Positions 762 through 20,000 are shown, numbered from the stretch's first letter. The stretch: DNA of 20,000 nucleotides from an uncultured virus (IMG/VR IMGVR_UViG_3300017783_005492) (IMGVR_UViG_3300017783_005492); one strand, 5' to 3'. Made by a program: numbers and translations. Notes: generated by a model from the sequence alone, not told the origin.

Positions 762-764
762 ATA
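757..764 (+). promoter_or_regulatory. T4-type late promoter (TATAAATA)
   Basis: Exact gp55 consensus, overlapping the stop codon of the upstream gene, 22 nt before the gp25 ATG. Confidence 0.85.
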
Positions 765-1230: not shown

Positions 1231-3069
1231 ATGGCAGTAACTAACATTGAATCTACCCAGCTAGATTTTCAACAAATTAAGCAAAGATTAAAAACATATC
1301 TTGCTTCCGATAACGAGTTTCAAGATTATAATTTTGAAGCTTCAGGCCTAAGCAATATTCTTGATGTTCTTGCATACAACACACACTTTAATGGTCTTAT
1401 TGCAAACTTTGCTTTGAATGAAGCATTCCTTAATACTGCTCAACTTAGATCTTCAATTGTTTCTCATGCTCAAGGATTAGGTTACTCACCTAGATCCAAA
1501 ACATCTTCTCAAACAAATGTAAATCTTACTCTTAATCTTGCTGGTGTTTCTAATAGAAACACTACATATATTCTTCCAGCCTTTACGCTATTTACCACAT
1601 CTATTAATGACATAACTTATACGTTTCAAACAACTGAATCTTTAACTGCTACAGATAATGGCTCAGGTCTATATGAATTTTCTGACGTTAATGGAAATAA
1701 AAATGTCATTCTATTTGAAGGTACTAAAAGAACTAAAAAGTTTTATGTTGGTAAAGTTGGTGAAAGACAAATTTATGTTATACCAGATTCAACAATGGAC
1801 ACTGCTACCACAATTGTAAAGGTTTTTGCTAATCCTTCAACTACAGAGTTTGAAGCGTACACACCAATTAGTAAAGCTATTAGAGTAGATCAAAATTCTA
1901 AATTTTATCAAATCACAGAAGCTCCTAATGGATTTTATGAATTAAACTTTGGTGATGGTATATCATTTGGTCAAGCACCAGAAACAGGTACTGTAGTTCA
2001 AGTAGAATATCTTTCTACTGTAGGAGCAGATGCTAATGGTGGACAAGTGTTTTCTCCAAGTTCACAGTATACTGTTAACGGACAAGGCTATGACTTATCT
2101 GTAACTACAGTTTCTAATTCTACATCTGGATCAGATAGACAAACAGTTGAAAGTATTAGATCAAACGCTCCATTGGCATTTGCTGCACAACAAAGACTTG
2201 TTACAGCAGAAGATTATAAAGCTATTATTCTTGCTAACTATTCTAACATCGTTGATGCAATTGCTTGGGGAGGTGAAGATAACATTCCAGCAAATTACGG
2301 AAACGTTTATGTTGGATTAAAATTTCAAGATGGTATTACTGAAGCAGAAAAAACTTCAACAAAAGATTCTATTACAAGTAATATTACAGATTTTCTTTCA
2401 GTGTTATCTATTGGTACGATATATGTTGATCCAATTGAAACATTTATTGAGGCAGTTGTTGAATTTAACTTCGATCCAAACTTAACAAGTGTGACATTAC
2501 AATCTACGGAATCTGTTGTTTATAGTAAGGTCAGACAATTTTTCGAAAGTAACTTAGGACTTTTTGGTAGTATATTTAGAAGATCTAATTTGTTAACGAC
2601 CGTAGACCAATTAGAAGAGTCTGTTATTAACTCATCAGTTGCTATTAAAGTTCAACAGAGATTTGAGCCAATATTAAATCAATCTCTTTCATATGAAATT
2701 AATTTTCCAGTTACACTTCAAGCACCAGACGATATAATTGAAACTGTAACTTCATCTACATTTAGATTTAACAATAAAGTTTGTTTAATCAAAAATAAAC
2801 TTAACTCAAAAAAGCTTGTTATAACAGATACTCTTGGAAACGTTGAAGTTGATAATCTTGGACAATACGATCCTGATAGAGGTAAGGTAGAACTAAATGG
2901 GTTTATTCCAGAAAGTATTACTTCTGGCCAAACCTACATAAAACTTTCTGTTACTCCGAGAGATCAATCAGTAATTAAACCCTTAAGAAATTATATCCTT
3001 TTATTGGATACTGATGCATCGTTTGCTTCAGGTAAAGTTGATAGACAAACGGTTGATGTGACACTGTAA
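1231..3069 (+). CDS. gp6: baseplate wedge subunit gp6
   Basis: 612 aa with LDFQQIKQRLKTYL...FQDYNFEASGLSNILDVLAYNTH...NEAFLNTAQLRSSIVSHAQGLGYSPRS, YELNFGDG and QQRLVTAEDY, all T4 gp6 hallmarks. Confidence 0.95.
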   Translation: MAVTNIESTQLDFQQIKQRLKTYLASDNEFQDYNFEASGLSNILDVLAYNTHFNGLIANFALNEAFLNTAQLRSSIVSHAQGLGYSPRSKTSSQTNVNLTLNLAGVSNRNTTYILPAFTLFTTSINDITYTFQTTESLTATDNGSGLYEFSDVNGNKNVILFEGTKRTKKFYVGKVGERQIYVIPDSTMDTATTIVKVFANPSTTEFEAYTPISKAIRVDQNSKFYQITEAPNGFYELNFGDGISFGQAPETGTVVQVEYLSTVGADANGGQVFSPSSQYTVNGQGYDLSVTTVSNSTSGSDRQTVESIRSNAPLAFAAQQRLVTAEDYKAIILANYSNIVDAIAWGGEDNIPANYGNVYVGLKFQDGITEAEKTSTKDSITSNITDFLSVLSIGTIYVDPIETFIEAVVEFNFDPNLTSVTLQSTESVVYSKVRQFFESNLGLFGSIFRRSNLLTTVDQLEESVINSSVAIKVQQRFEPILNQSLSYEINFPVTLQAPDDIIETVTSSTFRFNNKVCLIKNKLNSKKLVITDTLGNVEVDNLGQYDPDRGKVELNGFIPESITSGQTYIKLSVTPRDQSVIKPLRNYILLLDTDASFASGKVDRQTVDVTL

Positions 3070-4037
3070 TGACAACACAAACAGAAGAAGTATTTTTTAA
3101 TAGACGTAATCTTGTTTTCCATACAGACGTGGTTGAACAAGTATTGCCAGAATATTTTCAAAGAGATTATCCTAATCTTATAAAATTCATGAATGCTTAT
3201 TACTCATTTATGGATTCAGATGAGCTTACAGATTCTCTTAAAGACTTATACGCGATTAGAGATATCGAATCTTCTTCTGCTAAACAGTTAGATCAAATAT
3301 TTGCAGAAATTGCTCAAGGCGCATCAGCTTCATACTTTGCAGATTCGCGAGAAGCATTAAGAAACTTTGCTAACTTTTTTAGAGTTAAAGGTAGCTTATA
3401 TTCTGCTGAAGGTTTTTTTAGAGCATTTTTTAATGAAACAGTAGAAATTCAATTTCCAAAAGAACAAATGTTTAGAATAGATGATTCTTTAATTGGTGCT
3501 GAATCTCTTAAATATATACAAAACGCAGGATTATATCAAATTTTTTCTGTGTTAATTAAATCTTCTGTTCCAATTATTAGATGGAAAGAATTATATAGAA
3601 GGTTTGTACACCCTGCAGGATTTTTTCTTGGAGGTGAAGTTTCACTTGAAATACAGGCGCAATCCATATTTGATGTTAATGGAACACAACCAACAGTTGT
3701 GCTTATTGATTCTGCCTCATTGGCAAGAACAAGCGAAGCGTTTGCAACATTGGATGCTCCACAAGCATTCCATGAAGTAGTCGGTGAATTTGAAGATGGT
3801 ATTGACGGAGATAGCGATGTGACTAGAGCAAGGTTTGTACAGATTAATAGATATTCAAATATGTCTATTCAAGAGCTTATAAATTCTTATGGAAACTTTG
3901 CACCTGGAACTGACGGTATTTTGGACGTTAACTCTCCAACATTAGATGAAGATACAGGAAGAACTCCTGGATTACTTAAAATATCCAATGCGATTGAAAC
4001 AATGGATCTAGATCGCTTCGAACTGTATGATAGTTGA
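3069..4037 (+). CDS. gp7: baseplate wedge protein, short gp7-like
   Basis: Coupled to gp6 by a TAATG overlap. LPEYFQRDYPNLIKFMNAYYSFM, FFRVKGSLYSAEGFFRAFFNE and YQIFSVLIKS...WKELYRRFVHPAGFFLGGEV match the conserved N- and C-terminal motifs of gp7-like proteins in T4-like phages. Confidence 0.72.
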   Translation: MTTQTEEVFFNRRNLVFHTDVVEQVLPEYFQRDYPNLIKFMNAYYSFMDSDELTDSLKDLYAIRDIESSSAKQLDQIFAEIAQGASASYFADSREALRNFANFFRVKGSLYSAEGFFRAFFNETVEIQFPKEQMFRIDDSLIGAESLKYIQNAGLYQIFSVLIKSSVPIIRWKELYRRFVHPAGFFLGGEVSLEIQAQSIFDVNGTQPTVVLIDSASLARTSEAFATLDAPQAFHEVVGEFEDGIDGDSDVTRARFVQINRYSNMSIQELINSYGNFAPGTDGILDVNSPTLDEDTGRTPGLLKISNAIETMDLDRFELYDS

Positions 4038-4045
4038 TATAAATA
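4038..4045 (+). promoter_or_regulatory. T4-type late promoter (TATAAATA)
   Basis: Exact consensus directly after the gp7-like stop; AGGTGA ribosome-binding site and ATG 4074 follow. Confidence 0.85.
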
Positions 4046-4073
4046 ACAATAAGAATTTTCAATAGGTGATTGA

Positions 4074-5060
4074 ATGGCACGGCAAAACTTAGGCACTGGC
4101 AGTACCGCAAATGACGGTACAGGAGATACACTCCGAGCAGCTGCCACTAAAATTAACTCAAACTTTGTAGAACTTTACCAAAAGCTTGGTGGAGATTCTG
4201 ATTTATTGTCAGGTGAGTTATCTGTTACAGCAAACGGTATTCAGTTTGAAGGCACTACTGATGATAACTTTGAAACTACACTAAAAGCAGTTGATCCGGA
4301 TTCTGATAGAACAATTAGGTTACCTAATGCAGATGGTGAAATTATTACTGATTCTGCAACTCAAACAATAATTAATAAAACTCTTATTTCTCCAGTTCTT
4401 GGTGCACCTCAAATTCATGATTTAGATTCCTCTCATCAATATATTCTTAAAGCAGGTTCACTAACATCAGATCATAATGTTAACATCCCTTCACTTACTG
4501 ATAGTGATACATTTACATTTTTGAAGTCTACACAAACTTTAGAAAATAAAACTTTAGATTCTGCAACAATTAACAACCCAGCTATTACTGGAAAAATAAA
4601 TGATGTTAACGGTGCTGAGCTATTAAAGATAACGGCTACAGCATCAGCAGTAAATGAAGTCACACTAACTAATGCTGCAACTGCAGGAAAACCTGAACTA
4701 GCGGCGTCAGGAAGCGATACAGATATTAACTTAAAGCTTTCACCTAAAGGCTTAGGATCAGTTGAAGTACAAAAGATTGCTACAACTGTTACTGAAATGA
4801 CTTCTGCTGGTACTGCACCAAGTGCAACTTCTTATGTAATTATTAATATAGGAACTGCTTCAGCAATTGGTCTAGCAGATGGAACCACTATTGGAGAACA
4901 AAAGATTTTTACAAACAAAGGTGCTGGTATAGCAACTATCACACCTACCTCATTCGGTCCAGGCGCTGATATTGTATTGGACCAAACCGATGGTTGCATT
5001 TTAATTTGGGATAATACCAATTGGCAGATTATTGGCCAATACGGTGCTACGGTAGTATAG
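4074..5060 (+). CDS. baseplate wedge/tail-fibre connector-like protein (gp9/gp10-type N-terminus)
   Basis: N-terminus MARQNLGTGSTANDGTGDTLRAAATKINSNFVELY is the gp9/gp10 DGTGDTLR..KIN.NF.ELY motif, followed by fibre-like TQTLxNKTL repeats. Confidence 0.75.
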   Translation: MARQNLGTGSTANDGTGDTLRAAATKINSNFVELYQKLGGDSDLLSGELSVTANGIQFEGTTDDNFETTLKAVDPDSDRTIRLPNADGEIITDSATQTIINKTLISPVLGAPQIHDLDSSHQYILKAGSLTSDHNVNIPSLTDSDTFTFLKSTQTLENKTLDSATINNPAITGKINDVNGAELLKITATASAVNEVTLTNAATAGKPELAASGSDTDINLKLSPKGLGSVEVQKIATTVTEMTSAGTAPSATSYVIINIGTASAIGLADGTTIGEQKIFTNKGAGIATITPTSFGPGADIVLDQTDGCILIWDNTNWQIIGQYGATVV

Positions 5061-5068
5061 GATAAAAC

Positions 5069-6469
5069 ATGGCTGCGATTATTACAGATAGACTTAAAAG
5101 ACAATTCATTAATCATTTATTTGATGATGTGTTAGACTCTAGTAACAACTACTATGTTGGGATTGGAAGATCTGAACCTTGGGATTCCAACGATGCTGCA
5201 CCTACACCAATTAAGTCTCAAAGAGATGAAAGAAATGCACGCTTAGGAATGCAAGCAGTAAAGACTGCTGAAACAGTTTCCTTTGTTGTTCCTCGACATA
5301 ACTGGTCGTCTGGTACTATTTACAGCGCATTTGATGATGCGTATGCTGCATATCCAACCAATCCATATTATGTTCTTACAGATGAAAACTCTGTGTATAT
5401 GTGTATTCAACCAGGTCTAAACGCGGCTGGATCATCAGTGACATCAACGGTTAAACCAACCGGTACAAATTCTAGACCAATTTCGACTGCAGATGGTTAC
5501 ATTTGGAAATACTTATACACTATCGGTGCGCTTGATGGTACTAAATTTACTTCAGCAAATTTCATTCCTGTAACTAAAGTTAATGATTCAGCAGGAACTC
5601 CAGGATTATCTGCTTTGCAGGTTAACCAAAGGCTTGTGCAAGAAGCAGCAACTCAAGGAGAAATTATTTCTATACAGTTAATAAATGCTGGCAGTGGATA
5701 CACAGGAACTCCTACAATACAAATTACAGGAGATAACTCTGGCAAGCAGGCTGCTGCGACGGCTACAGTTTCAAATGGAATAGTAACTAAAATTGAAATG
5801 AATGATTCCGGAGCAGGTTCTAAAACAGGACATGCATTTGGATCCGGATACACTAGAGCTGATATTTCAATTAATGGTGGCGGTGGTACAGGTGCTACTG
5901 CTAGAGCAGTCTTTGGACCAGACTCTGGCGTTGGTGCAGATCCAAGAGAAGACTTAAGATCATTTTCATTAATGTTTAACTCAAGAATTGCTGGTGATGA
6001 AAATGATATTCTAAAAGTTGGTAACGACTTTAGACAAACACTATTGCTTAAAAATGTCGAAGCAGATAGTGCTGGTGGAGATGGACCACTATACGTTGCA
6101 GATGTTGGAAACACGTTGAATTATCTAAAACTTTCAACTGTATCAACACCATTTACTGTTGATAGAACAATCCTTGGAGCCTCATCCTCAGCTAAAGGTT
6201 TAGTTGATTTTGTAGATTCAAGTAGAATTTATTACCATCAATCAGAAGTAACCGGCTTTGGTATTTTCCAAGAAGGAGAAGTCCTCACTGAACAAAATGG
6301 TAATGGAGATGGCATTGTTGAAAACGCTGCCACTGATTCTGATACATTTGCATATAGATTCCCAGACGTAAATCCCTTTTCAGGGGAGTTACTATATATT
6401 GATAATAGATCACCAATTGAAAGGTCTAATGACCAAACAGAGGACATTAAAGTTGTGATTCAACTCTAA
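5069..6469 (+). CDS. gp8: baseplate wedge subunit gp8
   Basis: YYVGIGRSEPW, VVPRHNWSSGTIY, YYVLTDENSVYMCI, TADGYIWKYLYTI, NDFRQ and C-terminal SGELLYIDNRSPIERSNDQTEDIKVVIQL are characteristic of gp8 in T4-like phages. Confidence 0.9.
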   Translation: MAAIITDRLKRQFINHLFDDVLDSSNNYYVGIGRSEPWDSNDAAPTPIKSQRDERNARLGMQAVKTAETVSFVVPRHNWSSGTIYSAFDDAYAAYPTNPYYVLTDENSVYMCIQPGLNAAGSSVTSTVKPTGTNSRPISTADGYIWKYLYTIGALDGTKFTSANFIPVTKVNDSAGTPGLSALQVNQRLVQEAATQGEIISIQLINAGSGYTGTPTIQITGDNSGKQAAATATVSNGIVTKIEMNDSGAGSKTGHAFGSGYTRADISINGGGGTGATARAVFGPDSGVGADPREDLRSFSLMFNSRIAGDENDILKVGNDFRQTLLLKNVEADSAGGDGPLYVADVGNTLNYLKLSTVSTPFTVDRTILGASSSAKGLVDFVDSSRIYYHQSEVTGFGIFQEGEVLTEQNGNGDGIVENAATDSDTFAYRFPDVNPFSGELLYIDNRSPIERSNDQTEDIKVVIQL

Positions 6470-6484
6470 TAGGTAAAAAATAAG

Positions 6485-9400
6485 ATGGCTGTTGATTTTA
6501 CGAAAAAAATATTTTCGGATACATATAGAGACGATTTCAGAGATAGCGATAACTATCATCGTATTCTCTTTAACTCGGGTCGAGCATTGCAAGCTAGAGA
6601 GCTTACGCAAATGCAGACTATTATACAAAGAGAAATTGAAACGTTTGCTTCAAACATTTTCAAAGAAGGTGCTGCAGTAAATCCAGGTGGAATTACTATT
6701 AACAAAGAATACGAGTTTATTAAGCTAGATACTTCTGTAAATATTTTTAGAACAGACCCTAACGATTATAATAACATAGAATTTACAGGAGCAACTTCAG
6801 GAGTTAAAGCTGTAGTCATTGAAGCTGTTGCCGCGGGTTCAGTCGATCCTGCAACACTATATCTTAGATACACTAAAACTTCAACAGGAACTTCATCTAC
6901 TAGTCCTATTAGATTTACTCCTGGTGAGGAAATTTCTGGAGGAGGATTTACTCTTACAGTTCAAACAACAAACACTGTTGCTAATCCGTCATCAGGTATG
7001 GGTACCCGAGCTTCTGTTAATACCGGATCATTCTTTGTACAAGGCCACTTCGTTTTCTTCGAAGACCAATCAATCATTCTTTCAAAATATAGCAATACTG
7101 TAACAGCGACTGTTGGATTCAAGGTAATTCAAGATATTGTAAAAGCATCAGACAATGAAGCTTTATATGATAATCAAGGAGCAATTCCTAATAAGGCAGC
7201 AGCAGGTGCTGATCGATATAGAATTAGACTAGAGTTAATTGACAAAGCCAATGTTGATTCTGATGAAAATTTTGTTTTTTATGCTAATGTAATTAATGGT
7301 TCCGTTTCTGAATTTGCAAATGGAACAAATCAATATGCAAAAATTGCAGACTATGTTTCACAAAGAGCATATGAAACAAATGGTAACTTTAGTGCTAAGC
7401 AGTTTAGAGTTAAATTTGACGAGAATGATTCTGATAACACTAAACTTGATGTAGATGTTTCTGCTGGTGTGGCTTATGTTAATGGCTATCGCGCTGAAAG
7501 CATGATTCCTAAAACAATTACTATTAATAAAGCACAAGAAACTACTGATCTTAATAACCAGGTTGTTGCTGCAAACTTTGGTAACTTTGTTGAACTTGAC
7601 TCAACAAACGATCCAAGACTAGAGGTGATGTTTAAGAGGCTTCCTAATCTAAACGCCTATCAAGTTAGAAATTTAAGAGATTCTGCTAATCACTTAGGCG
7701 CAACAATTGGTACTGCAAGAGCAAGATATATTGAAGAAGATGGTGCAGATTATAAGTACTATCTTTTTGATATTTCAATGAATAGCGGTAAATCATTTCG
7801 TGATGTCAAATCAATTGGTGGCTCAACTTCAGACTATGTTAACGTTAGGCAAACACGAGGTGAAACTGAACTTAAAGGAGCTATTAATAATAATCTTCTA
7901 TTCCCTCTTCCAAATAGTCGACCTAAGCAAATTACAGATATTAGTCTTGAAGTACAAAGATACTTTACTGGACAGTTTGACTTTTCTGGATCAGAAACAC
8001 TTACGTTAACAGCAAACGGTGAAACTTTCGCTTCTCCATCTGAGTGGATTTTTACTATTGATTCAAGTGGTAAAATGCTTACTAATAATGATGTGACTAT
8101 CACTGGTACTGGCACAGCAACTATTAATATTTCAGGCGGACCAACAACAACAAACTTTGAGTTATTAACTAAAGTTGATAAATCTCAAGGTACTGTTAGA
8201 TCTAAAACTCTAAATTCTCCTCCTACAACTGGACCAAAGGGTTTAGCAACCAATGGAACCTTTATTAAAACTACATTGGATTCAAATAACGTACTAGATC
8301 TTGCTAAACCAGATTTGTTTAAGGTAGTGCTTATTGCTGATGGTGAATCTGATGGCACAGATATTTCAAGTAGATTTATTGTTGACAATGGACAAAGAGA
8401 CAATTTTTATGCGCCAGCTAGACTAATTCTTAAGCAAGGTGCGGCGGAACCTGCTGGTAACGTTTTCTGCTCATTTTCATATTTTACACATGGTGCATCT
8501 GGCGATTTCTTTGCAGTTAACTCATATACTGGACAAGTAGATTATGCTGACATTCCAAACCACGAATTGTCAAATGGAACTGTAGTTAATTTAAGAGATG
8601 TATTAGACTTCCGTCCTCGATTGAAAGACGATGCGCTTGACTTTGCTGGTGGTACTGCTCGTATTAACGAGCTACCAAAGCCTAACTCTTTGATTAGATT
8701 TGATCAAGAAACTTATATGCCAAGATATGATAAACTCATTATCAAAGAAACTGGATTAATTGAAATCATTCCTGGTCAATCAGATCTTTCACCAAGATTT
8801 CCAGAAACACCAGAAAATTCATTAGAGCTTTATAAGCTTAAGCTAAATCCTTTTACTCTAAATGATTCAGACACTGACACTGATCTTATTGAGACAAAAG
8901 TATTTACAATGGCAGACATTGGTAAACTTGAAACTCGTATCGATCAATTAGAAGAAATAGCTACGCTTAATGCTTTAGAAACAAATCTAAGAACATTTAG
9001 TGTTTTTGATTCAACAGGTGCTGATAGAACTAAAGCTGGATTTTTAGTTGATAACTTTTCTGATCAACTAGCATCAGCAGTTAATAGTCCAGAATACGCT
9101 GCAGCGATTGATCCAAGAGAAGGAATAGTTAGACCTTCGTTTAATGAAGATCAAATCGGTTTTGTTTATGACTCAGATAAGTCAACCAATACAATTAAAA
9201 AAGGCGATAACGTTTATATTAAATATGATGATCTAAAGTTTATTGATCAGCCTTTATATTCTGGTACAATTAACGTTAACCCGTTTGCAGTTATTACTCA
9301 TACAGGTCGAGTTCTTCTTTCACCACAATCAGACGATTGGCGTGAAGTAAAAAGAGTACCACCAAGAATTGTAGATGGAGGATTCAGACTTAATCCTGCA

Positions 9401-11653: not shown

Positions 11654-11883
11654 TGAACGCAGAAAATAAATTTGGAAGATTTGTTGACATTGAAGGTCAT
11701 CCTGGCTGGAAAAGAGATATGAGATCTAATGCTATTGTTAGATCTAAAAGTGAAGATGGTAACGTTGCCAGGGCTGCTAAGAAGAAAAAAAAACAAATGG
11801 AAAATGATATAAATAACTTAAAGAATGAAATAGGTGAGATAAAAAATTTGCTCAAAATATTGGTAGATAAAAATGGCACGTAG
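11653..11883 (+). CDS. small hypothetical protein with C-terminal coiled coil
   Basis: 76 aa, coupled by TAATG to the upstream gene; VDIEGHPGWKRD...AIV followed by heptads (INNLKNEIGEIKNLLKILVDK). Similar small genes follow VrlC-like genes in T4-like phages. Confidence 0.75.
   Translation: MNAENKFGRFVDIEGHPGWKRDMRSNAIVRSKSEDGNVARAAKKKKKQMENDINNLKNEIGEIKNLLKILVDKNGT
11808..11815 (+). promoter_or_regulatory. T4-type late promoter (TATAAATA) inside the 76-aa gene
   Basis: Exact consensus 57 nt upstream of ATG 11873. Confidence 0.65.
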
Positions 11884-12400
11884 AATTAAAATTGAAATTG
11901 ATGATCTCGTAGATGATTGGCGCACCAAAACCAATACGTTAAGTAATTACTTTGGCGATCTTGACGAGCTTGCAACAGATGCAGACTCTGACCTCGTTGA
12001 AGCTATTAACGAAATCAACCTTAACTCTAAGGACTCTGCTGAAATCAATCGTATGATTGATTCAAACTTAGATTCTTTTTACGGTTTATATTTTCCAGTA
12101 GATTCAATTAATCTTGGGGATTTAGCAGTTGATTCAAATGCTATTCAAGCAAGATCAGTAGGTACATTAAAGCTTCAGCTTGATGCTGTCACAGGTATTA
12201 TTATTGCTACTGATGCGATTGACTCAACTCATGTTGGATCTCTCAGTCTTACAACTGCTATGGTTCAAGACTTTGCAATTACAAATGGTAAAATTGCAGA
12301 CAACACTATTCAGTCATCGAAGTTTGATTCGACTGTTACTCTCACAATTACAGATTCTGCGGGAACGATAGTAAAGACACTAAGATCTCCGGGGAGCTAG
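11873..12400 (+). CDS. putative virion fibre/structural protein with 10-residue repeats
   Basis: GDLDELATDADSDLVEAINEI fibre-type motif followed by about 10-aa periodic units (AVDSNAIQAR/SVGTLKLQLD/AVTGIIIATD/AIDSTHVGSL/SLTTAMVQDF/AITNGKIADN); 9 DS in 175 aa. Confidence 0.6.
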   Translation: MARRIKIEIDDLVDDWRTKTNTLSNYFGDLDELATDADSDLVEAINEINLNSKDSAEINRMIDSNLDSFYGLYFPVDSINLGDLAVDSNAIQARSVGTLKLQLDAVTGIIIATDAIDSTHVGSLSLTTAMVQDFAITNGKIADNTIQSSKFDSTVTLTITDSAGTIVKTLRSPGS

Positions 12401-12403
12401 TCG

Positions 12404-13348
12404 ATGGCTATTAGGTATCCGGTATACTGGGATCATGCGGCAGGCACAATTCGCCCCATGTCTGTTCAAGGCATACAAAGAATTCGCAAGCGCGTATTAT
12501 TTTTACATGGAAATTACAAAACAGTAAACATTCAAGTTGCCTCTGGAGTTCTTGGAGGTAATATGCTGACGATCTCCGATACTCGTAAAATGGCAGGAGC
12601 AGGTAATACTCACGTATCATCATTTCGTACTGCAGCACAAACTGCTGATGTAACCACAAAAACAATTAATTATAATCGTTTAATTCATTCACCTGATTCT
12701 ATGTCAGGTGTTACAGATACTAATAACAGAAGATACCCACTTTATCTTGATGGCACAAATAACTTAGTTGCTATGAACCAACAGGATATGTTTGACACCT
12801 TTATTACTCAAGCATTAGATGATATTGTGGATGGAAGCGATCACCCTGGAGTTTATAAGCTTTCAACTTTAACCAGTCTAGCTAATCACACAATTGTTTC
12901 AGGTACTCCTGTATTTACTGATACTAGAGCTAATGTTGGTGCCTATACGTCTGGCGGTATTAGTGAAACAAAAGATCAACCTACTACTATTAATAATTAC
13001 TATCTTCACATTGGTAATGCTTCTTTAACTACAGTTGAAAATCACCCTTTGCCTTTGAAAATTGGTGCAGATGATAACATAGAAACATACGATGCTGCTG
13101 CTTTAGATGTTACATTAGGAGAACTTTTGCAATATTATGGCGGAGCTAACGGAGGTACTGGTAACCAAATTTCGTATAACTGGACTGGAACAGGACAACA
13201 AAGAGGAACTGCCCTTGTAAACACTGTCGTTAATGGATCTACGTATAGAACTAGAAAAGTAGATACAAACGATTACCGCGCGCAGGAGCACCCTTCAGGA
13301 TCAGTAATTACAGTTAACACTTATACATTTTCTATACAAAGGTCTTAA
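12404..13348 (+). CDS. hypothetical virion-associated protein with three internal ~100-aa repeats
   Basis: 314-aa Thr/Gly/Asn-rich ORF in the late operon with a GGAG ribosome-binding site; repeated YP(V/L)Y.D and DTR...TIN.Y motifs. Confidence 0.6.
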   Translation: MAIRYPVYWDHAAGTIRPMSVQGIQRIRKRVLFLHGNYKTVNIQVASGVLGGNMLTISDTRKMAGAGNTHVSSFRTAAQTADVTTKTINYNRLIHSPDSMSGVTDTNNRRYPLYLDGTNNLVAMNQQDMFDTFITQALDDIVDGSDHPGVYKLSTLTSLANHTIVSGTPVFTDTRANVGAYTSGGISETKDQPTTINNYYLHIGNASLTTVENHPLPLKIGADDNIETYDAAALDVTLGELLQYYGGANGGTGNQISYNWTGTGQQRGTALVNTVVNGSTYRTRKVDTNDYRAQEHPSGSVITVNTYTFSIQRS

Positions 13349-13350
13349 TC

Positions 13351-14061
13351 ATGACATATCAATTTTATAACGCATATTTTACAAACGACACTAGAAATAC
13401 TATAGAAGTGGTTTATGTAAATCCTGATAATGATGAAGACGCATACGTTGAATATTTGAAAGCTGATAAATCACAAAAGGTTTATCAAGATCTTTTGGAA
13501 ATAGTAACCGAAGATCAGCTACATGAAAATACGTATAAGCGTATGAAAGTGATGCAGGAAGATTATGAAAAAGATGTTATTGCAATTGCAAAAGATCAAG
13601 GCTTAATTTATGATGTGGATGATCTAAATAGTAAACTATATGAAGTTCTACTTAAATCTATCTTTATTGACTTTGACGCAGAAGACCATAAAGAAAAACT
13701 TTTCTTAATTAAAATTGCTTTATTTGAAAATGAAGAAATTATGAATAGTAAAAATAAAGCTCTTAAATCTAAATTAAGAAAAGCTCCGACTTTACTTGAA
13801 GCCGTTAATATTTCTACAGAAATTGTTATTGAGGCTCGTGCAGCAAATACTCCTGCCACCACCCAGGCTGAAGCATCTTCTGATGATTCTGATTCATCAG
13901 AACAACAGGATACTCCGGTAAATCTCGAAACTCTGTCTGATACGAGCAATAACCATACCAATGAAAGTTTAGATTCGGACGAATCATCTCATGAAAATAT
14001 TGATCAATCCCTAGATAATACTTCAACTGATAGTAATCTGGATTCTGATCCCACAACTTAA
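13351..14061 (+). CDS. hypothetical protein: globular N-terminal ~160 aa plus an acidic Ser/Thr/Asp-rich tail overlapping the antisense gene
   Basis: 236-aa ORF starting 2 nt after the previous stop; the last ~78 codons overlap the - strand glycosyltransferase-like gene. Confidence 0.7.
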   Translation: MTYQFYNAYFTNDTRNTIEVVYVNPDNDEDAYVEYLKADKSQKVYQDLLEIVTEDQLHENTYKRMKVMQEDYEKDVIAIAKDQGLIYDVDDLNSKLYEVLLKSIFIDFDAEDHKEKLFLIKIALFENEEIMNSKNKALKSKLRKAPTLLEAVNISTEIVIEARAANTPATTQAEASSDDSDSSEQQDTPVNLETLSDTSNNHTNESLDSDESSHENIDQSLDNTSTDSNLDSDPTT

Positions 14062-14407
14062 ACACATCACTTCTATCACCGGTCCAAGATATAATGCTTG
14101 AATTTAGTGGTGTGTGCCATGCATCTCTCCACCAGGCCCAACAAACTTTTAATGAGTTTGACAAAAACCTATTGCAATCTCCTTTTATAATAACATCTAA
14201 GTCAAAATAAATATTTGTTCCAGTGCGAAACTTATCAAACATAATAAGTTTATTTGCAACCTGAAGATCGTATTTGTTTTCTTTTATCACCACAAATTCA
14301 TCGTATTCTAAATTAGAATACGTATCAATCATATGCTTTATGTTATTGACGTACCACTCACTATATTTTGTGCCAGTGTTAACTACAATAATTCTATCAA
14401 GGTGCAT
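13826..14407 (-). CDS. glycosyltransferase-like protein (GT-A fold, DxD motif)
   Basis: Likely start ATG 14407 (MHLDRIIVVNTGTKYSEWYVNNIKHMI), overlapping the radical SAM stop. Motifs GTKYS..YV, NKL.MF, NIYFDLDVII, NSSIISW and GIDQYF are typical of small phage glycosyltransferase-like proteins. Confidence 0.7.
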   Translation of the reverse strand: MHLDRIIVVNTGTKYSEWYVNNIKHMIDTYSNLEYDEFVVIKENKYDLQVANKLIMFDKFRTGTNIYFDLDVIIKGDCNRFLSNSLKVCWAWWRDAWHTPLNSSIISWTGDRSDVFKLWDQNPDYYQLKYYLGIDQYFHEMIRPNLNFHWYGYCSYQTEFRDLPEYPVVLMNQNHQKMLQPGWWQEYLLHEPQ

Positions 14408-15461
14408 GTAATTCTCTAATCTGATGAGTTTTCTTTTGTCTATTAGAACAATTTCTAACACATTGGCCAATTGGATCATTACCTTTTATACTATCTGGTA
14501 AAGCTTTTGTAAACCAGTCTGAATTTAATATTTCAGATAATTTCGTATGTAGTACATTATAAGACTTCAAATTTCTATTATAGTCTTCGCTATAAACAGC
14601 ATTTAAGTTTAATGCTGTTTTGCTGTTTTTATATACAGGATCGTGTCTTTGCCAAAAGTGTGCGTTTGCGTGAAAACAACAAGGCATAATTTGACCATCA
14701 GGGTTAACTACAATTTCGTTTCTCGGCAAAGCCCATCTACATTTTATTTCATAAGAATTATATCTGTCTGTACTTCCAGCAATTATTCCATCCGGCAATA
14801 CTTCTCTGTCAGCAGCTTCTAAACAATCTTTTTCTCCATGTTCATTAATAAATGATCTAATTTCTTTACCTCTAAATCTATCACTAATTACAAATGCGTG
14901 AGCAATAGATCCATGTGCTTTAACTAGGTTTTTAATTTCACTTTTATATTCTTGGTTGTGCTTAAATAAAATAGTTTGAGATTTTACTAATGATGTAGTC
15001 TGACTAAGCATATCCATATTTTCTAGAACTTTACTTAAGTGAGTAAATCTTCTATATTTTTCATGCATTTCCTGATTGATTCCATCAATATCAAATATAA
15101 CTTCTAATCTAGATCTACACTTAACACCTATATCCCACCACCAATCAGCATTTCGGATACTTCCATTTGTATCCATAGAAATTAAAGTGTCTGAGTTATC
15201 AATAATATATGCAAAAATTTTATCTAAGTCTTTGCACATAACCGGATCGCCCCATGTTCCACAAAACTTAAATATCTTAATACGCATCATTTCACTAGGA
15301 GGAAATGCTTTTTTGAACATATCAAGATCCCATTGTATTAGTGGCAGCCAATCGGTTTTACCTAAACCGTTTTCGCTTGTTCTATGACATTGAGGACAAC
15401 CAGCATTACAATAAGTTGATATGTCAAGAAAAACCTTTATTGAATTAGGATTCCATTTCAT
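14397..15461 (-). CDS. radical SAM enzyme with C-terminal twitch/SPASM-like Fe-S domain
   Basis: CNAGCPQC (CxxxCxxC), FCGTWGDP, TNGS, FDIDG; C-terminal C...VNPDGQIMPCC...C...C. GGAG ribosome-binding site upstream. Confidence 0.9.
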   Translation of the reverse strand: MKWNPNSIKVFLDISTYCNAGCPQCHRTSENGLGKTDWLPLIQWDLDMFKKAFPPSEMMRIKIFKFCGTWGDPVMCKDLDKIFAYIIDNSDTLISMDTNGSIRNADWWWDIGVKCRSRLEVIFDIDGINQEMHEKYRRFTHLSKVLENMDMLSQTTSLVKSQTILFKHNQEYKSEIKNLVKAHGSIAHAFVISDRFRGKEIRSFINEHGEKDCLEAADREVLPDGIIAGSTDRYNSYEIKCRWALPRNEIVVNPDGQIMPCCFHANAHFWQRHDPVYKNSKTALNLNAVYSEDYNRNLKSYNVLHTKLSEILNSDWFTKALPDSIKGNDPIGQCVRNCSNRQKKTHQIRELHAP

Positions 15462-16236
15462 CTATTTCTCCAAAGGTAATATCAAATTCTTTTTTTATGT
15501 GGTGTAAAAAGTGCGATGATTCTCCTCCTCGAGGCGCATAATCGTCAAGCATAAAATTCCAAGCCATGCCAATATTTGTGTAAGGTACATTATATTTTTC
15601 TATCATCCATGATATAAACACTTCGTTATTAGGTCTCCAAGATCTTGAAATTTCTTCTGGATATAGATTATCAATACACGATTCTTCAAAAACTTTATAT
15701 GCTTCAGGCAATCTTTTACTAAAATTTAAGTTTTGGATTGCTTTACGATTACCTCCAATAACTCCTGTGTTAATCATTGTATCATTGCCAGACATGTTTT
15801 CTAAAATTAACATTGATTTTTTAGCACAAGTTTTTGCATATACATTCATTCTATCCCAGTCATTTGCTTGAAACTTCCACTTTAATTCATTTGCTCCAGG
15901 AGTTCTAGACATAGAATAGGCGTTAATTTTATTCATATCAAAGTATTCAAAAAAGTTGACATCTGTTTGAGGGATTACATCAAAATCTAAATACAAAACT
16001 TCGTCATATATTTTTGATAATTCTTCAAGTTTATTTAGTTTCATAAATTGAATTTTATCGTAGTCGGTTTCTTTTATAATGTATAGTTTATAATCAGCGC
16101 TAACTTTTGTTGCGTATTCTAATTGTTTTGTTTCTAAGTGTAGTTTGTATTTCTTAAACTGATTTTTTTTATAATCAGTTGAAGACATATGCTCACCTAC
16201 ATTTTCACTGTATAGACTGTATATGATTCTTGACAA
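15445..16236 (-). CDS. glycosyltransferase-like protein (GT-A, DxD), paralog of the upstream gene
   Basis: VLYLDFDVIP, INTGVIGG, NNEVFISW, WNFMLD and FLHHIKKEF. Probable TTG start at 16236 (MSRIIYSLY), 8 nt after AAGGA. Confidence 0.75.
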   Translation of the reverse strand: MSRIIYSLYSENVGEHMSSTDYKKNQFKKYKLHLETKQLEYATKVSADYKLYIIKETDYDKIQFMKLNKLEELSKIYDEVLYLDFDVIPQTDVNFFEYFDMNKINAYSMSRTPGANELKWKFQANDWDRMNVYAKTCAKKSMLILENMSGNDTMINTGVIGGNRKAIQNLNFSKRLPEAYKVFEESCIDNLYPEEISRSWRPNNEVFISWMIEKYNVPYTNIGMAWNFMLDDYAPRGGESSHFLHHIKKEFDITFGEIDEMES

Positions 16237-17098
16237 AATCAAAATCCTTTTTAATGCAATGAACTAATTTAGTTCCTTTTGGTATGTATGAAAACTTATC
16301 CATAAAGTAATGCCAAGAAGGACTTAGTTTATTGTATGGTATTTTTTTGCTTATCATTAAATAGCTCCACAAAGTTTCATTATCATACCCAAATAATTTT
16401 TGTATGTAGTCTGGATATATACTATCTTGTTCTTTTACTAAGCTATCCATATACTTAATATTCTTTTCAAAAGAATTAAAATAATCAAGAAGCTCAAGAC
16501 TTTTTTTATTTGACCCAATTATTCCAGTATTAAAAACTTCAATATCGCTAGTGCTAAAATCTCTATTAAATAGCATTGCTTGTGTATTCCAATATTTTGC
16601 AGTAGGTGATCTATTGCTATGTTTTTTTGTACTACGTTTCATCCTTAGTAGAGCTTTATTATTAGTTTCAATTCTTGTTTGACTTTCAGCCGTACCTGAC
16701 ATTATAGTTAAGCCTGGCCATCTCTTAAAAAAACACTGATCTGTCATTGGAATAACGTCAAGGTCTAAATATAAAACCTCATCATATTTTTCAGCTAAAT
16801 CATATAAGAGCTTAATTTTATAAAAGTTAACAATGTTATATTCAGTGATTGTGCTTGGCATAGTTTTTGCATATTCTTCATACGCTTTATCATATGTAAA
16901 ACAAAAATAGTCTGCGCCTATTAAAGATGCATACTGCTTTTGCTTTTCTATAAGCCAAGGGGAATGTATTAAAAATTGTTCTTTTGTATGTAATGTTTTG
17001 GAAATTGTCGTATCTACATGAGGAGGTTGATAATCTAATTTTTCTTCTGGAATATCTACGTATAAACTAAAGACTACTTTATTTTTATAAATACTCAT
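16205..17098 (-). CDS. glycosyltransferase-like protein (GT-A, DxD)
   Basis: Likely start ATG 17098 (MSIYKNKVVFSLYVDIP) with AGGA 6 nt upstream. YASLIGADY, NFYKI, VLYLDLDVIP, FNTGIIG, YDNETLWSY, WHYFMD and LVHCIKKDF resemble GT8/GT34-like motifs. Confidence 0.78.
   Translation of the reverse strand: MSIYKNKVVFSLYVDIPEEKLDYQPPHVDTTISKTLHTKEQFLIHSPWLIEKQKQYASLIGADYFCFTYDKAYEEYAKTMPSTITEYNIVNFYKIKLLYDLAEKYDEVLYLDLDVIPMTDQCFFKRWPGLTIMSGTAESQTRIETNNKALLRMKRSTKKHSNRSPTAKYWNTQAMLFNRDFSTSDIEVFNTGIIGSNKKSLELLDYFNSFEKNIKYMDSLVKEQDSIYPDYIQKLFGYDNETLWSYLMISKKIPYNKLSPSWHYFMDKFSYIPKGTKLVHCIKKDFDFVKNHIQSIQ
17086..17093 (+). promoter_or_regulatory. T4-type late promoter (TATAAATA) embedded in the first codons of the antisense glycosyltransferase gene
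   Basis: Exact consensus ending 8 nt before ATG 17102. Confidence 0.7.
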
Positions 17099-17101
17099 AC
17101 T

Positions 17102-17707
17102 ATGTCCTATTACAAAGAAGCTCTTAAATCTGTTGACACTGCATTGCGTCAATGGCCGCACAATGTTGACTTAGCTTTATCTATAGCTAACCATGTAAAT
17201 GAAAATCAAATGGCAACCAAAAAGTGGTTGACTCTTGAATTGGCTGACATGTGCGAAATGAAAGAACTTGTAAATCCTAATGTTTTAATTCACGCCGGGT
17301 GGTTTGGCCTAGTAGGTGATATGATTAGAACTTCTAAAATAAAACCTAATAAAGTATGTATAATGGACAAAGATCCAATGTGTCAACCTATTGGCGGTTG
17401 GATGTATCCTAAGATTAAACATACGTGGGGTAAAATAGAAGATTGGAATCCAGATGATGAACACTTTGATATTATTGTATTGCCTTCATGCGAGCATATC
17501 ACAGATGAAACATTAAACAACTTTCTTTCTAAAAAAAATGAAAGCACTTTAGTTTGCTTAACTTCAAATAATATGCATGGTCATGAAGATCATATTAATT
17601 CTAAAGGGTCTGTTCATGATTTTTCAAATTCAGTAAAGTTAAGAATACTTAAAGAATGCGAACTTAAGCTTGATGGTTATACACGGTTCATGATCTTTGG
17701 GGTATAA
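17102..17707 (+). CDS. class I SAM-dependent methyltransferase-like protein
   Basis: VLIHAGWFGLVG (motif I-like), IMDKDPMC (acidic end of strand 2), FDIIVLPSCEHI and CLTSNNM...DHIN. Confidence 0.65.
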   Translation: MSYYKEALKSVDTALRQWPHNVDLALSIANHVNENQMATKKWLTLELADMCEMKELVNPNVLIHAGWFGLVGDMIRTSKIKPNKVCIMDKDPMCQPIGGWMYPKIKHTWGKIEDWNPDDEHFDIIVLPSCEHITDETLNNFLSKKNESTLVCLTSNNMHGHEDHINSKGSVHDFSNSVKLRILKECELKLDGYTRFMIFGV

Positions 17708-17710
17708 ATA
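17703..17710 (+). promoter_or_regulatory. T4-type late promoter (TATAAATA)
   Basis: Exact consensus overlapping the methyltransferase-like stop codon, 32 nt before ATG 17743. Confidence 0.85.
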
Positions 17711-17742
17711 GAACAAACCCTTTTAATATATGAGTTTGTTTT

Positions 17743-18093
17743 ATGGCACAGCAAGAAGAAATCACAATAGATCAAGGTACAGATGTAACGATAAAGCTAG
17801 AGCTTGTCGACATTGACGGTAATAAGAAAAATTTGCTAGACTATTCTGTTGCAGCAAAAATGAAAAAAACTTATAACACACCTGATTCAGATGCAACAGT
17901 ATTTACATCGTCAGTTATCTCTCCCGAAACTGATGGTATAGTAGAACTAACACTAAATAATGCTACTACTGCTGCATTAAAAAATGGACGATACGTATAT
18001 GATGTAGAGATCTCTTTCCAAGATAGTAATACAAACACGGTGATCGAAAGAATCCTTGAAGGACAAATTACAGTAACGCCAGGCGTTACTTGA
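17743..18093 (+). CDS. small virion structural/adaptor protein (BppU N-terminal-like beta domain)
   Basis: IDQGTD...L.DYSVAAKMKK...G.VELTL...GRYVYDVEI...RILEGQITVTPGVT, a common small structural protein found before fibre genes in T4-like phages. Confidence 0.65.
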   Translation: MAQQEEITIDQGTDVTIKLELVDIDGNKKNLLDYSVAAKMKKTYNTPDSDATVFTSSVISPETDGIVELTLNNATTAALKNGRYVYDVEISFQDSNTNTVIERILEGQITVTPGVT

Positions 18094-18108
18094 TTACCGG
18101 AGTAATGA

Positions 18109-20000
18109 ATGGCTGAAATCATTGTAAGTGCAGGGAAAACACGAGTACGTCAAGTAACTAAAGTTGTTGTTCCTGGCAATAAGACTATCGTAAAGAAAGT
18201 CGTTGTTGGTACGCCAATTAAAACAGGCATTGCTGCGCAAGGTTTCTTAGTCAATCTTTCAGATGTAGATGGAAGTAATAACTTAAGCGAAGGATCATTT
18301 CTTCGCTATGATTCTGCACAATCAAAATTCAAACACGTAAGCTTAGCTCAGGCTATTGGACAAAATGTTTCAGTTAATAGCACTGGTGACTTTGCATCAC
18401 TTGCATTTGATTCTATTGGCGGTACATTTAATTTCCAAGGTGTTAACACTTCGGATATTCGCGGGGTTTTATCTGCAAGAAAAGATTCGTCTGGCGCTGG
18501 TGATGGTGATATCACGTATGATTCTGCGACAGGCACAATTTTATTTACTGGACCAGAAACAAGAAAGCTTATTTCTGGTCAGGTCACAGGCCAAGATAGC
18601 ACAGACTTTACTTACGATTCTGCTACAGGAATCTTTACCTTCAATGATTCCAACTTTGGCAGAACCGATTTCCGTTCGACATATCACGAAGGTATAGCTT
18701 TACCTGACGGACAAAATATTAGCTTTGGCACAGGAAACAAATTTTCCACAATAAAAGAAAGTGATAACAATCTTCAAATAGAAAACAACTATGGTGCTAT
18801 TGAAATAACACCTAGGATAGGTTCTAATCTTGTTATTACTTCTGCTAATAATATATCAGGCGGACAACAACTTATTATTGCCGGAGATTCCGGAGGCGTT
18901 CAGCTTAATTACAGAGATGGAGACAGAAGACTAACAACAACAGATTCCGGTATTACTATTAGTGGTAATATCTTTGTTGATTCAAATGCGTTAGTTGATG
19001 GTACTCTCACTGTAAGACAAGGTGTAACATTACAAAGCACATTAGATGTAACAGATTCTTCAAGAATTAGAGATAACCTTACCGTTGATTCCAATCTTAA
19101 TGTAGGTGGCAACATCACATTAGCAGGAACACTTACCGGTAGCATTAGTGCAGCCAATGTAAGGGAACATTTTAGCGCAGGCGGCGACATAACATATGAT
19201 TCCGCAACAGGAAAATTCTCGATTGATGTCGAGGAAATATACACCGCAGCTAATTTTGACTCTGACTTCAGAGTTAGACTACTTTCAACAACAACAGATT
19301 CTATTGCAGAAGGAACAAATTTATATTACACTACAGCAAGAGCTGATAGTGATGCAAAGAGATCCATTAGTGTTGTAGATGCTGGTGGTGATGGTTCACT
19401 TGAATACAATGAAACTACTGGTGTTATTACATACACTGGAGCTACACCAGATTCAGTAAGATCTCATTTTAGTGCTGGTGCTAGTTTAACTTATGATTCT
19501 TCTACAGGAAAATTTACAACAAATCAAGCATTAGACTCAAATAGTAATGTTAGATTTCAAAATATTACTCAAACCGGTCAGCTACGTGGTCCTGCAGAAT
19601 TCATAATTGATCCAGCAGCTATTGGTGATAATACTGGTACTGTTAAAATTCTCGGTAACCTTCAGGTTGAAGGTACTCAAACAATTATTAATTCTACTAC
19701 TGTAAGTATCAATGATAAAAACATTGTGCTTGCTGACAGTGCTGCTGATAGCTCAGCAATGCATGGCGCAGGTATTACGGTAGGTGGATCAAATATTGTT
19801 AATAAGCCATCATTAACATATTCACATGCTGATGAAAGATTTGTATTTAATAGAAATATTCAAGCCGATAGTTTTATTGGTAATGTTACAGGTAACGTAA
19901 CTGGTCAAGTTAGTGATATATCAAATCTTTCTACTGACTCTTTAGCAGAAGGTTCAACAAATAAGTACTACACTCAGGCTAGAACAGACTCTGATGCTAA
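18109..20000 (+). CDS. long tail fibre/fibre-like virion protein, truncated by the window end (missing from the ORF track)
   Basis: GGAG at 18099-18102 then ATG 18109 (MAEIIVSAGKTRVRQV...). Open for 630 codons to the window end. Gly/Ser/Thr-rich with repeated TYDSATG, TDS.AEG..N.YYT.AR.DSDA, GNLQVEGTQTIINSTTVSINDKNIVL and GNVTGNVTG fibre motifs. Confidence 0.85.
   Translation, partial: MAEIIVSAGKTRVRQVTKVVVPGNKTIVKKVVVGTPIKTGIAAQGFLVNLSDVDGSNNLSEGSFLRYDSAQSKFKHVSLAQAIGQNVSVNSTGDFASLAFDSIGGTFNFQGVNTSDIRGVLSARKDSSGAGDGDITYDSATGTILFTGPETRKLISGQVTGQDSTDFTYDSATGIFTFNDSNFGRTDFRSTYHEGIALPDGQNISFGTGNKFSTIKESDNNLQIENNYGAIEITPRIGSNLVITSANNISGGQQLIIAGDSGGVQLNYRDGDRRLTTTDSGITISGNIFVDSNALVDGTLTVRQGVTLQSTLDVTDSSRIRDNLTVDSNLNVGGNITLAGTLTGSISAANVREHFSAGGDITYDSATGKFSIDVEEIYTAANFDSDFRVRLLSTTTDSIAEGTNLYYTTARADSDAKRSISVVDAGGDGSLEYNETTGVITYTGATPDSVRSHFSAGASLTYDSSTGKFTTNQALDSNSNVRFQNITQTGQLRGPAEFIIDPAAIGDNTGTVKILGNLQVEGTQTIINSTTVSINDKNIVLADSAADSSAMHGAGITVGGSNIVNKPSLTYSHADERFVFNRNIQADSFIGNVTGNVTGQVSDISNLSTDSLAEGSTNKYYTQARTDSDA
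19294..19998 (+). repeat. protein-level repeat units in the fibre gene
   Basis: TDSIAEGTNLYYTTARADSDA (about 19294-19356) recurs as TDSLAEGSTNKYYTQARTDSDA (about 19933-19998). VR.HFSAG...TYDS.TGKF occurs twice in the gene. Confidence 0.7.

Follow-up and report, generated by a model that had tools for sequence, protein, structure and literature searches.

An Asp-Ser loop motif in the outer baseplate and fibre proteins of an uncultured marine T4-like phage, and its relation to a neighbouring enzyme island

The stretch of DNA considered here (hereafter the window; 20,000 nucleotides of IMG/VR record IMGVR_UViG_3300017783_005492) is the tail module of an uncultured marine T4-like phage of Kyanoviridae type. 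Two of its features concern us, namely the dipeptide Asp-Ser (DS), which is over-represented in the peripheral virion proteins, and a cassette of glycosyltransferase (GT)-like, radical S-adenosylmethionine (SAM) and methyltransferase-like genes that lies among the genes for those proteins. A first-pass annotation of the window had proposed that the GTs of the cassette glycosylate the DS sites, which was not borne out, since cassette and motif are each found without the other among relatives. The gp6 of the window is at most 41% identical to that of any cultured phage, the best match being C48C1, followed by Melnitz (a phage of OM43), HTVC008M and Mosig (both phages of SAR11). At the DNA level, no relatives were found among 50,697 phage records using megablast and blastn; the nearest record to the window is G001 (13.7 kb), where, as throughout, “G” numbers denote whole genomes or long contigs of relatives and “L” numbers denote related loci. 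On the plus strand the gene order is gp25, gp6, gp7-like, gp9/10-like, gp8, DUF4815/VrlC and then four genes for proteins of 76, 175, 314 and 236 amino acids (aa), followed by a methyltransferase-fold gene, a fibre-assembly gene and a fibre gene, with a four-gene block on the minus strand (13826-17161) sitting ahead of the methyltransferase-fold gene. Several genes are named by length: g175 (11873-12400), g314 (12404-13348), g236 (13351-14061), g201 for the methyltransferase-fold gene (17102-17707) and g116 for the fibre-assembly gene (17743-18093). The plus-strand genes other than g201 are as follows:

787..1230, plus strand: gp25, inner baseplate wedge protein (PF04965, E 3.9e-13)
1231..3069, plus strand: gp6, inner baseplate wedge protein (phrog_219, E 1.8e-131)
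3069..4037, plus strand: gp7-like peripheral wedge protein (PF23786, E 1.2e-13)
4074..5060, plus strand: gp9/gp10-like fibre connector (PF07880, E 4.8e-7; phrog_677)
5069..6469, plus strand: gp8, baseplate wedge protein (phrog_438, E 4.1e-81)
6485..11653, plus strand: DUF4815/VrlC giant structural protein, 1722 aa (PF16075, E 8.5e-51)
11653..11883, plus strand: 76-aa virion structural protein (phrog_473, E 3.2e-15)
11873..12400, plus strand: g175, 175-aa fibre-like protein (phrog_892 tail fibre, E 1.2e-8)
12404..13348, plus strand: g314, conserved 314-aa protein that precedes the enzyme island in relatives
13351..14061, plus strand: g236, a conserved ~155-aa domain plus a 78-aa acidic tail; always heads the enzyme island
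17743..18093, plus strand: g116, tail fibre assembly protein and downstream border of the enzyme island (phrog_3304 “L-shaped tail fiber protein assembly”, E 1.5e-18)
18109..19998, plus strand: tail fibre protein, whose 3' end lies beyond the window (PHROG structural matches)

The peripheral virion proteins had been described as rich in DS, and this was upheld when every count was compared with the expectation from the protein's own composition and its significance was taken as the share of 5000 shuffles that reached it. The fibre (630 aa) holds 24 DS vs 5.7 expected and g175, the densest complete gene for DS, holds 9 vs 2.3 (0/5000 shuffles in both cases), followed by the gp7-like protein (7 vs 2.2, p 0.002), the gp9/10-like protein (6 vs 2.0, p 0.008), gp8 (8 vs 3.2, p 0.011) and DUF4815 (15 vs 10.0, p 0.07), the last of which is not significant alone. 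Pooled, these six proteins (3643 aa) contain 69 DS vs 25.6 expected (z 9.3), which ranks first of the 400 dipeptides, the next real one being LK at z 4.5. In the same pool DT is depleted (12 vs 28.1), as are DA and ES, and SD is at expectation. No enrichment was seen in gp25 (0 vs 0.6), in gp6 (2 vs 3.3) or in the five island enzymes, which have 0, 1, 0, 2 and 0 DS. The hand counts made earlier were exact for every structural protein, whereas the range of 0-1 given for the enzymes was wrong for the second GT8-like gene (GT8b, below), which has two. A further five DS lie within the last 78 aa of g236. Along 236 nucleotides this acidic, Ser/Asp/Thr-rich tail lies antisense to the 3' end of the convergent gene 13826-14479; it is absent from most of 22 homologues (commonly 146-209 aa), and because most homologues end earlier, it may result from recent read-through or may not be produced at all.

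An enrichment of this kind could be an artefact of chance, of loop-residue clustering, of amplified repeats or of selection on the DNA word GANTC (GAY-TCN). Many of the fibre DS do fall in repeats, such as TYDSATG and TDSLAEGSTN, and GANTC occurs 91 times in the window vs ~64 expected from base composition. The size and first rank of the pooled signal, however, speak against such an origin, and the non-repetitive gp8, gp7-like and gp9/10-like proteins are enriched too, in ~70 relatives, whereas gp6, gp25 and the enzymes encoded on the same DNA are not. A mere clustering of residues that favour loops was ruled out, since SD is not enriched and the signal is directional. Among 2516 DS sites in 333 distinct proteins of the related loci, 31.8% of the Ser codons are AGY vs 26.0% elsewhere; the AGY share is not lowered at DS, and selection therefore does not act on a DNA word such as GANTC, so that a cause at the DNA level (GANTC or a codon pair) was rejected as well. 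We regard an artefactual origin as extremely improbable.

The sequence context of DS is itself constrained. In 2076 distinct contexts from related loci, the residue after DS is enriched for D (3.9x) and A (3.5x) and is rarely K, R, M, Q or F (0.1-0.2x), G is favoured at the second position after DS (2.1x), and the residue that follows D is S at 1.92x and T at 0.75x. Across 70 distinct gp8 sequences, which average 7.9 DS each, DS occupies 64 different alignment columns, in which D is nearly always followed by S. In the AlphaFold2 (AF2) model of gp8 (mean predicted local distance difference test, pLDDT, 90.1), 6/8 DS are in coil and 2/8 at strand ends, one a tight hairpin. DS thus sits in variable loops and shifts its position between relatives. 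The same gp8 columns hold other residues in the orthologues from T4, HTVC008M, Melnitz, Mosig and C48C1, and a fibre repeat that is 70% identical between the window and cyanophage WH25-B reads T-D-S-L in the window and T-D-A-L or T-D-N-V in WH25-B, by which a DS imposed by the fold was ruled out. Judged from these comparisons, DS appears to behave as a selected, sequon-like, directional and Ser-specific motif at the protein level, which we write D-S-[D/A]. No such loop motif was found in the literature that we searched.

Two known acceptor contexts resemble the motif in part. The sequon of general O-glycosylation in Bacteroidota is given as D-(S/T)-(A/I/L/V/M/T) (PMC8550257), to which the DS sites had been likened, and the likeness holds for the Asp before Ser and for the Ala favoured after it; it fails for Thr, which is depleted after D, and at the next position, where D and A are favoured alike and M is at 0.1x. 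The settings of the enzymes differ as follows. O-glycosylation in Bacteroidota is periplasmic, whereas virions assemble in the cytoplasm. The staphylococcal enzymes SdgA and SdgB are cytoplasmic-type, of GT-B fold, and modify long tandem SD repeats; they share with the present case a Ser flanked by Asp (D-S-D) as acceptor context, whereas in the present phage isolated DS sites occur in loops, and the candidate enzymes are of GT-A type. An explanation that needs no enzyme is that the motif works unmodified, as a turn-forming acidic loop (type I or Asx-turn) that may bind cations or a receptor. D-S-D-G and D-S-x-G match the canonical preferences of type I turns, and because of this fit an unmodified role is the single likeliest one in our estimate, even if it falls slightly short of an even chance.

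The tail-protein sets of the window and of related loci give DS z values of 7.5-12.6, DS being the top-ranked dipeptide in the window, L004, L022, L039 and L064 and the third-ranked in L025. In G002, a complete syntenic relative of 146.6 kb, ten open reading frames (ORFs) pass a filter of p<=0.05 and at least three DS, and eight of these encode tail proteins: the gp7-like protein (observed/expected 8/2.5), gp8 (7/2.6), DUF4815 (18/10.1), the g175 homologue, three fibre proteins and a 353-aa tail protein, with fibre values of 30/11.4, 9/3.1, 10/3.3 and 3/0.8. The two other ORFs that pass are a GT25-like protein and an unannotated ORF of 242 aa (both 3/0.7). DS is not enriched in the G002 capsid (3/1.9), sheath (6/4.1), tube (0/0.9), portal (3/2.4), neck or inner baseplate proteins. 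Since the exposed capsid and sheath are at expectation, exposure alone is not the determinant, and by its distribution over the proteins the motif appears to mark the host-recognition apparatus, i.e., the outer baseplate and fibres. No avoidance of DS was detected in the rest of the proteome, where observed/expected is 0.83-0.96 in three DS-rich phages vs 0.82-0.93 in six DS-poor ones.

Counted per whole genome or long contig as ORFs at DS p<=0.02, DS-rich ORFs number 6/198 in G002, 3/188 in G003, 11/154 in G004, 7/191 in G012, 5/186 in G013, 6/146 in G014 and 8/128 in G015. The DS-poor records are Mosig (1/184), HTVC008M (0/180), Melnitz (2/198), C48C1 (0/183), S-CAM7 (2/235) and P-SSM2 (2/294), and T4 is at expectation in the 18 proteins that were checked. 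G011 (160 kb) gives a weak signal, with 3/201 DS-rich ORFs, only one DS-rich fibre and ordinary baseplate proteins. No cultured isolate is found among the DS-rich phages in the records compared, and in a quick gp8 tree they group into what is essentially a single clade. Other dipeptides are also enriched in tail proteins of particular phages: TH and HD in L025 (z 15), FE in HTVC008M (z 10.5) and GN and NY in C48C1 (z 13-15), and SG is the top dipeptide in Mosig and Melnitz. Those of L025, HTVC008M and C48C1 probably come from amplified fibre repeats.

As the first-pass annotation had stated, three DxD GT-like genes, a radical SAM gene and a methyltransferase-like gene sit amid the structural module, and all five were recovered (13826-17707):

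13826..14479, minus strand: DxD protein, distant relative of the GT8-like genes (probable start Met25, near 14407)
14397..15461, minus strand: radical SAM enzyme with a SPASM-type C-terminal domain (PF13186 SPASM, 27.7 bits, cut-off 21.5)
15445..16242, minus strand: GT8a, GT8-like retaining GT-A glycosyltransferase (PF01501, 24.3 bits, exactly the cut-off)
16205..17161, minus strand: GT8b, second GT8-like glycosyltransferase (PF01501, 16.5 bits, below the cut-off; probable start Met22, near 17098)
17102..17707, plus strand: g201, class I SAM-dependent transferase fold, methyltransferase or aminopropyltransferase-like (late-promoter match upstream)

All three GT-like proteins carry the DxD metal/nucleotide-sugar motif behind a beta strand. 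In GT8a it is an LDFD at 86-88 that is invariant in 16 aligned sequences. Its AF2 model (pLDDT 91.8) has 230 Foldseek matches in the PDB at E<=0.001, led by GT6, GT8 and A64R enzymes, the best being retaining GT-A enzymes (alpha-1,3-galactosyltransferase at E 6.5e-7; A64R of chlorovirus PBCV-1 at rank 13), and GT8a is accordingly predicted to have the retaining GT-A fold. GT8b, a paralogue of GT8a with a likewise invariant LDLD at 133-135, is 39% identical to a Mosig gene (E 1e-51). The DxD protein had no Pfam match. Its D93 and D95 (FDLD, 93-95) are invariant in 14 sequences, iterative hidden Markov model (HMM) searches joined it to the GT8a/b families through 40 shared members, and hhalign aligned it to the GT8-like profile over 34 columns around the DxD motif (E 8.1e-5, probability 61%). 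It may be a third GT, a reasonable but weakly based label, because the tie consists only of the iterative HMM and the 34-column profile match. Sequence-profile searches of the PDB with the GT8-like and DxD families were not significant (E 0.61 and 0.12), and a search for related loci using GT8a alone found none.

The radical SAM protein scores 21.8 bits for PF04055 Radical_SAM, below the cut-off of 29.5, and matches phrog_21308 (E 6.8e-25); CNAGCPQC at residues 18-25 fits CxxxCxxC, and six further Cys lie towards the C-terminus. No NCBIfam equivalog came near its cut-off for this protein. A profile of 19 homologues of the g201 family matches spermidine synthases in the PDB (E 1.3e-6) as well as methyltransferases. 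No membrane segment was detected in the island enzymes, where the highest 19-residue hydropathy is 1.17. The order g175, g314, g236, GT-like, radical SAM, methyltransferase-fold, fibre assembly, fibre recurs in L004, and more than 20 related loci keep it with exchanged enzymes: sugar epimerase/dehydratase, DegT aminotransferase, carbamoyltransferase, sulfotransferase, TauD and Asp/Asn-hydroxylase-type oxygenases and further radical SAM genes all occur at this site. The fibre-assembly gene holds the same position in related loci. Of the two genes that precede the island, g314 gave no Pfam, PHROG or NCBIfam match and has 24 homologues in related loci by iterative HMM, and g236 has 26 by the same search, with C48C1 and Mosig among the carriers; matches of g236 in the Atlas are viral hypothetical clusters only. 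As a separate observation, L006, an unrelated viral contig, carries at least nine radical SAM paralogues, several of them consecutive.

An island of this type is already in print. Zaragoza-Solas et al. 2020 (PMC7029224) describe a hypervariable “host recognition cluster” of pelagimyophages between VrlC and gp14, with DUF4815/VrlC as its upstream border, in which tail fibres, GTs (GT8 being the commonest family) and radical SAM cassettes are mixed, and in which the authors read the GTs as modifiers of the host O-chain. By its gene content, the island of the window appears to belong to this published type: it is likewise a variable island after VrlC/DUF4815 with fibres, GT8-like and radical SAM genes, and Mosig, a cultured member, shares GT8b-like and DxD homologues with it. 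The gp14 border lies beyond the window, which ends in the first fibre gene; in G002 the neck genes come ~5 kb after the fibres, i.e., at the neck-side border of the cluster there. A term search of the text of PMC7029224 found no mention of DS-rich tail proteins.

Whether the motif tracks the cassette bears directly on the proposal that the GT8-like and DxD enzymes O-glycosylate the Ser of DS and that the radical SAM and methyltransferase-fold enzymes tailor the glycan. Its attractions are that the motif is sequon-like and selected, that the enzymes are predicted to be soluble and lie inside the fibre module, one of them behind a late-promoter match, that the GT8a model resembles retaining GT-A enzymes, the chlorovirus capsid-glycosylating A64R among them, and that relatives without GTs have no motif. 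Equal DS enrichment in GT-less relatives, named at the outset as an observation that would count against the proposal, was not found in T4, HTVC008M or Melnitz, where DS is not enriched. The expected association of DS enrichment with the cassette held in these three and broke down in Mosig, G011/L032, G015, L022 and L025. Mosig has four GT8-like HMM matches and, at the same site, GT8b-like, DxD, methyltransferase, three radical SAM and carbamoyltransferase genes, yet its DS z is -0.3. L032 and L039 both have the core of GT8a, GT8b, g201 and the DxD gene, with DS z of 0.5 vs 8.9, and 7 GT8-like and 9 radical SAM matches were obtained in G011, which shares an identical gp8 with L032. Conversely, DS-rich G015 has no GT8-like match in 115 kb, and no glycosyltransferase was found among the 80/128 of its ORFs scanned with Pfam; between g236 and the gene for fibre assembly it has just two genes without an assigned family, one of them a gene that we call comp2. 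The same pair occupies this site in L022, and in L025 the site holds none, both loci being DS-rich without the cassette.

Two systems in which viral GTs act on virion proteins are relevant here. Mycobacteriophage virions are reportedly O-glycosylated, with glycans said to have been demonstrated by Freeman et al. in 2023 on capsid and tail-tube subunits. As in those phages, the present enzymes are phage-encoded GTs, and structural proteins of the same phage would be their cytoplasmic substrates; here, however, a glycan on the virion is putative, the capsid and tube are not DS-rich (as seen in G002), and the enzymes do not track the motif. The second system is PBCV-1 A64R (PDB 2p6w, 2p72), a capsid-glycosylating enzyme whose retaining GT-A fold the GT8a model resembles (Foldseek E 4e-6, TM score 0.60 on target length, 11% identity). 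Mammalian GT6 enzymes score slightly better than A64R, and the match therefore bears on the fold of GT8a and not on its acceptor.

Transcription signals were sought as matches to TATAAATA, which we take to be the T4-type late promoter consensus:

757..764, plus strand: TATAAATA, just upstream of gp25
4038-4045, plus strand: TATAAATA, before the gp9/10-like gene
11808-11815, plus strand: TATAAATA, before g175
17086-17093, plus strand: TATAAATA, before g201 (methyltransferase-fold gene)
17703-17710, plus strand: TATAAATA, before g116 (fibre-assembly gene)

All five matches (5/5) are on the plus strand, each shortly ahead of a gene start, although a count of five is not above chance, being reached in 31/200 shuffles. 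Their positions suggest that T4-type late transcription units may start at gp25, the gp9/10-like gene, g175, the methyltransferase-fold gene and the fibre-assembly gene. No match was found on the minus strand of the window, which carries the GT and radical SAM genes, and the location of these genes opposite the late genes is a further point against glycosylation of DS by the cassette, as are the sheath and capsid at expectation and the lack of DS avoidance in other proteins. With homologous enzymes in phages of nil or weak DS enrichment and DS-rich phages without them, we consider glycosylation by this cassette to be unlikely.

The motif could instead be a modification tag for an enzyme encoded outside the window, either a phage transferase (a GT25 pair, comp2 or another) or a host enzyme. 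The selected turnover of DS in loops and its Ser specificity would fit such a tag, and ten candidate ORFs of G002 were considered in a search for an enzyme that tracks the motif. The GT25 pair (G002 61561-62930, equivalent to L093 1561-2930; PF01755, E 9.3e-13 and 8.6e-7) is part of a second island rich in enzyme genes, which lies ~26 kb upstream of the G002 baseplate genes, and is present in 6/7 DS-rich and 0/6 DS-poor genomes. It was rejected as the motif-tracking enzyme, since it is present in weak-DS G011 and missing at the apparent syntenic site of DS-rich G015, where the flanking orthologues are ~600 bp apart, one flank match being weak (28% identity). comp2 resembles nucleotide-sugar transferases only by its IDAD motif and by ESM features (score 0.97), its comparison with the GT8 profile by hhalign was not significant (E 0.1), and it also occurs in DS-poor C48C1. 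A 140-aa cytidylyltransferase-like candidate of G002 matches P-SSM2. In this gene-content comparison no enzyme family tested tracks the DS motif, and proteins outside the tail, here too, show no DS avoidance; a tag for an enzyme elsewhere is improbable in our view, albeit a little less so than glycosylation by the cassette.

Two observations arose beside this search. A further gene, comp3 (L022 21157-21813 and homologues), always follows comp2 beside g236 and has a conserved WHNN...H and no Pfam match, which suggests a cupin or oxygenase-like enzyme. In G002, genes of the thymidylate-synthase family, UDG-like, DNA alpha-glucosyltransferase (PF11440, E 1.4e-34) and C5 DNA methylase types lie at L090 11116-16166. 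The first two have homologues in G003 and G004 and the last two in G004, and blastp found no match for these four gene types or for the GT25 pair in the six DS-poor genomes. This gene set points to hydroxymethyl-pyrimidine, glucosylated DNA in this lineage.

On balance we read cassette and motif as two real, separable features, a judgement that we hold with even confidence. Genes 13826-17707 would be the form that the enzyme island of the pelagimyophage “host recognition cluster” takes in this phage, comprising three putative soluble DxD sugar transferases of GT-A type, a SPASM radical SAM enzyme and a SAM-dependent transferase. Together they may assemble and tailor a small sugar decoration in the cytoplasm of the infected cell, whose acceptor could be a glycan of the host envelope, in line with the published reading, or else one of the virion proteins, and would not be defined by DS. 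D-S-[D/A], in turn, is a short motif that selection on the protein maintains in variable surface loops and turns, only in the outer baseplate and fibres, and it occurs in one large lineage of uncultured marine T4-like phages. The comparisons show its enrichment, protein-level nature, loop position, turnover, restriction to a lineage and uncoupling from the cassette, and its role is inferred.

Several observations weigh against this separation and against an unmodified role. The complete genomes of HTVC008M, Melnitz and T4 lack both GT8-like matches and DS enrichment, and 6/7 further DS-rich genomes carry GT8-like genes, so that at the broadest level the features co-occur. All DS-rich genomes in which the site is visible, bar L025, have at least one DxD protein beside g236, which in L022 and G015 is of the comp2 family; with such a protein there nearly throughout, a DS-specific GT subfamily therefore stays a candidate. 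G015 is 65% complete, and all comparisons are confounded by shared descent, the tree being a quick gp8 tree. A purely structural role also fails to explain why one lineage only prefers Ser after Asp, and because it leaves this preference unexplained, a tag for covalent modification keeps some weight, although it is somewhat less probable in our estimate than an unmodified turn; a smaller share goes to neither of the two. In the most specific form of such a tag, which is doubtful, D-S-[D/A] would encode where Ser is modified in the cytoplasm, the most plausible modification being O-glycosylation by a single subfamily of the many small DxD transferases found in these phages. Only the host-recognition apparatus of this large, abundant lineage would then be decorated, and the island would diversify the glycan.

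In each case, one marine T4-like lineage, whose nearest cultured kin infect SAR11 and OM43, packs a three-residue motif into the loops of host-contacting proteins. Should the motif serve as a tag for modification, no earlier code of this kind would be known for T4-like virions, and it would matter for how very abundant ocean viruses bind receptors, for their host range and for the stability of their particles; as a Ser acceptor code with a diversifying island, it would amount to a virion “glyco-code” for host range in the ocean. If unmodified, it would plainly exemplify selection on a loop sequence throughout a lineage, for which a structural explanation would be needed. In both cases the easy answer is removed, as the neighbouring glycosyltransferases do not track the motif.

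A last observation concerns DUF4815/VrlC, which is a single ORF of 1722 aa in the window and is present as two ORFs (~1350 and ~525 aa) in 21/70 related loci. The two-ORF form might reflect splitting of the gene, a frameshift or the insertion of an element, and in L012 and L072 an ORF of 155-162 aa lies between the two halves.

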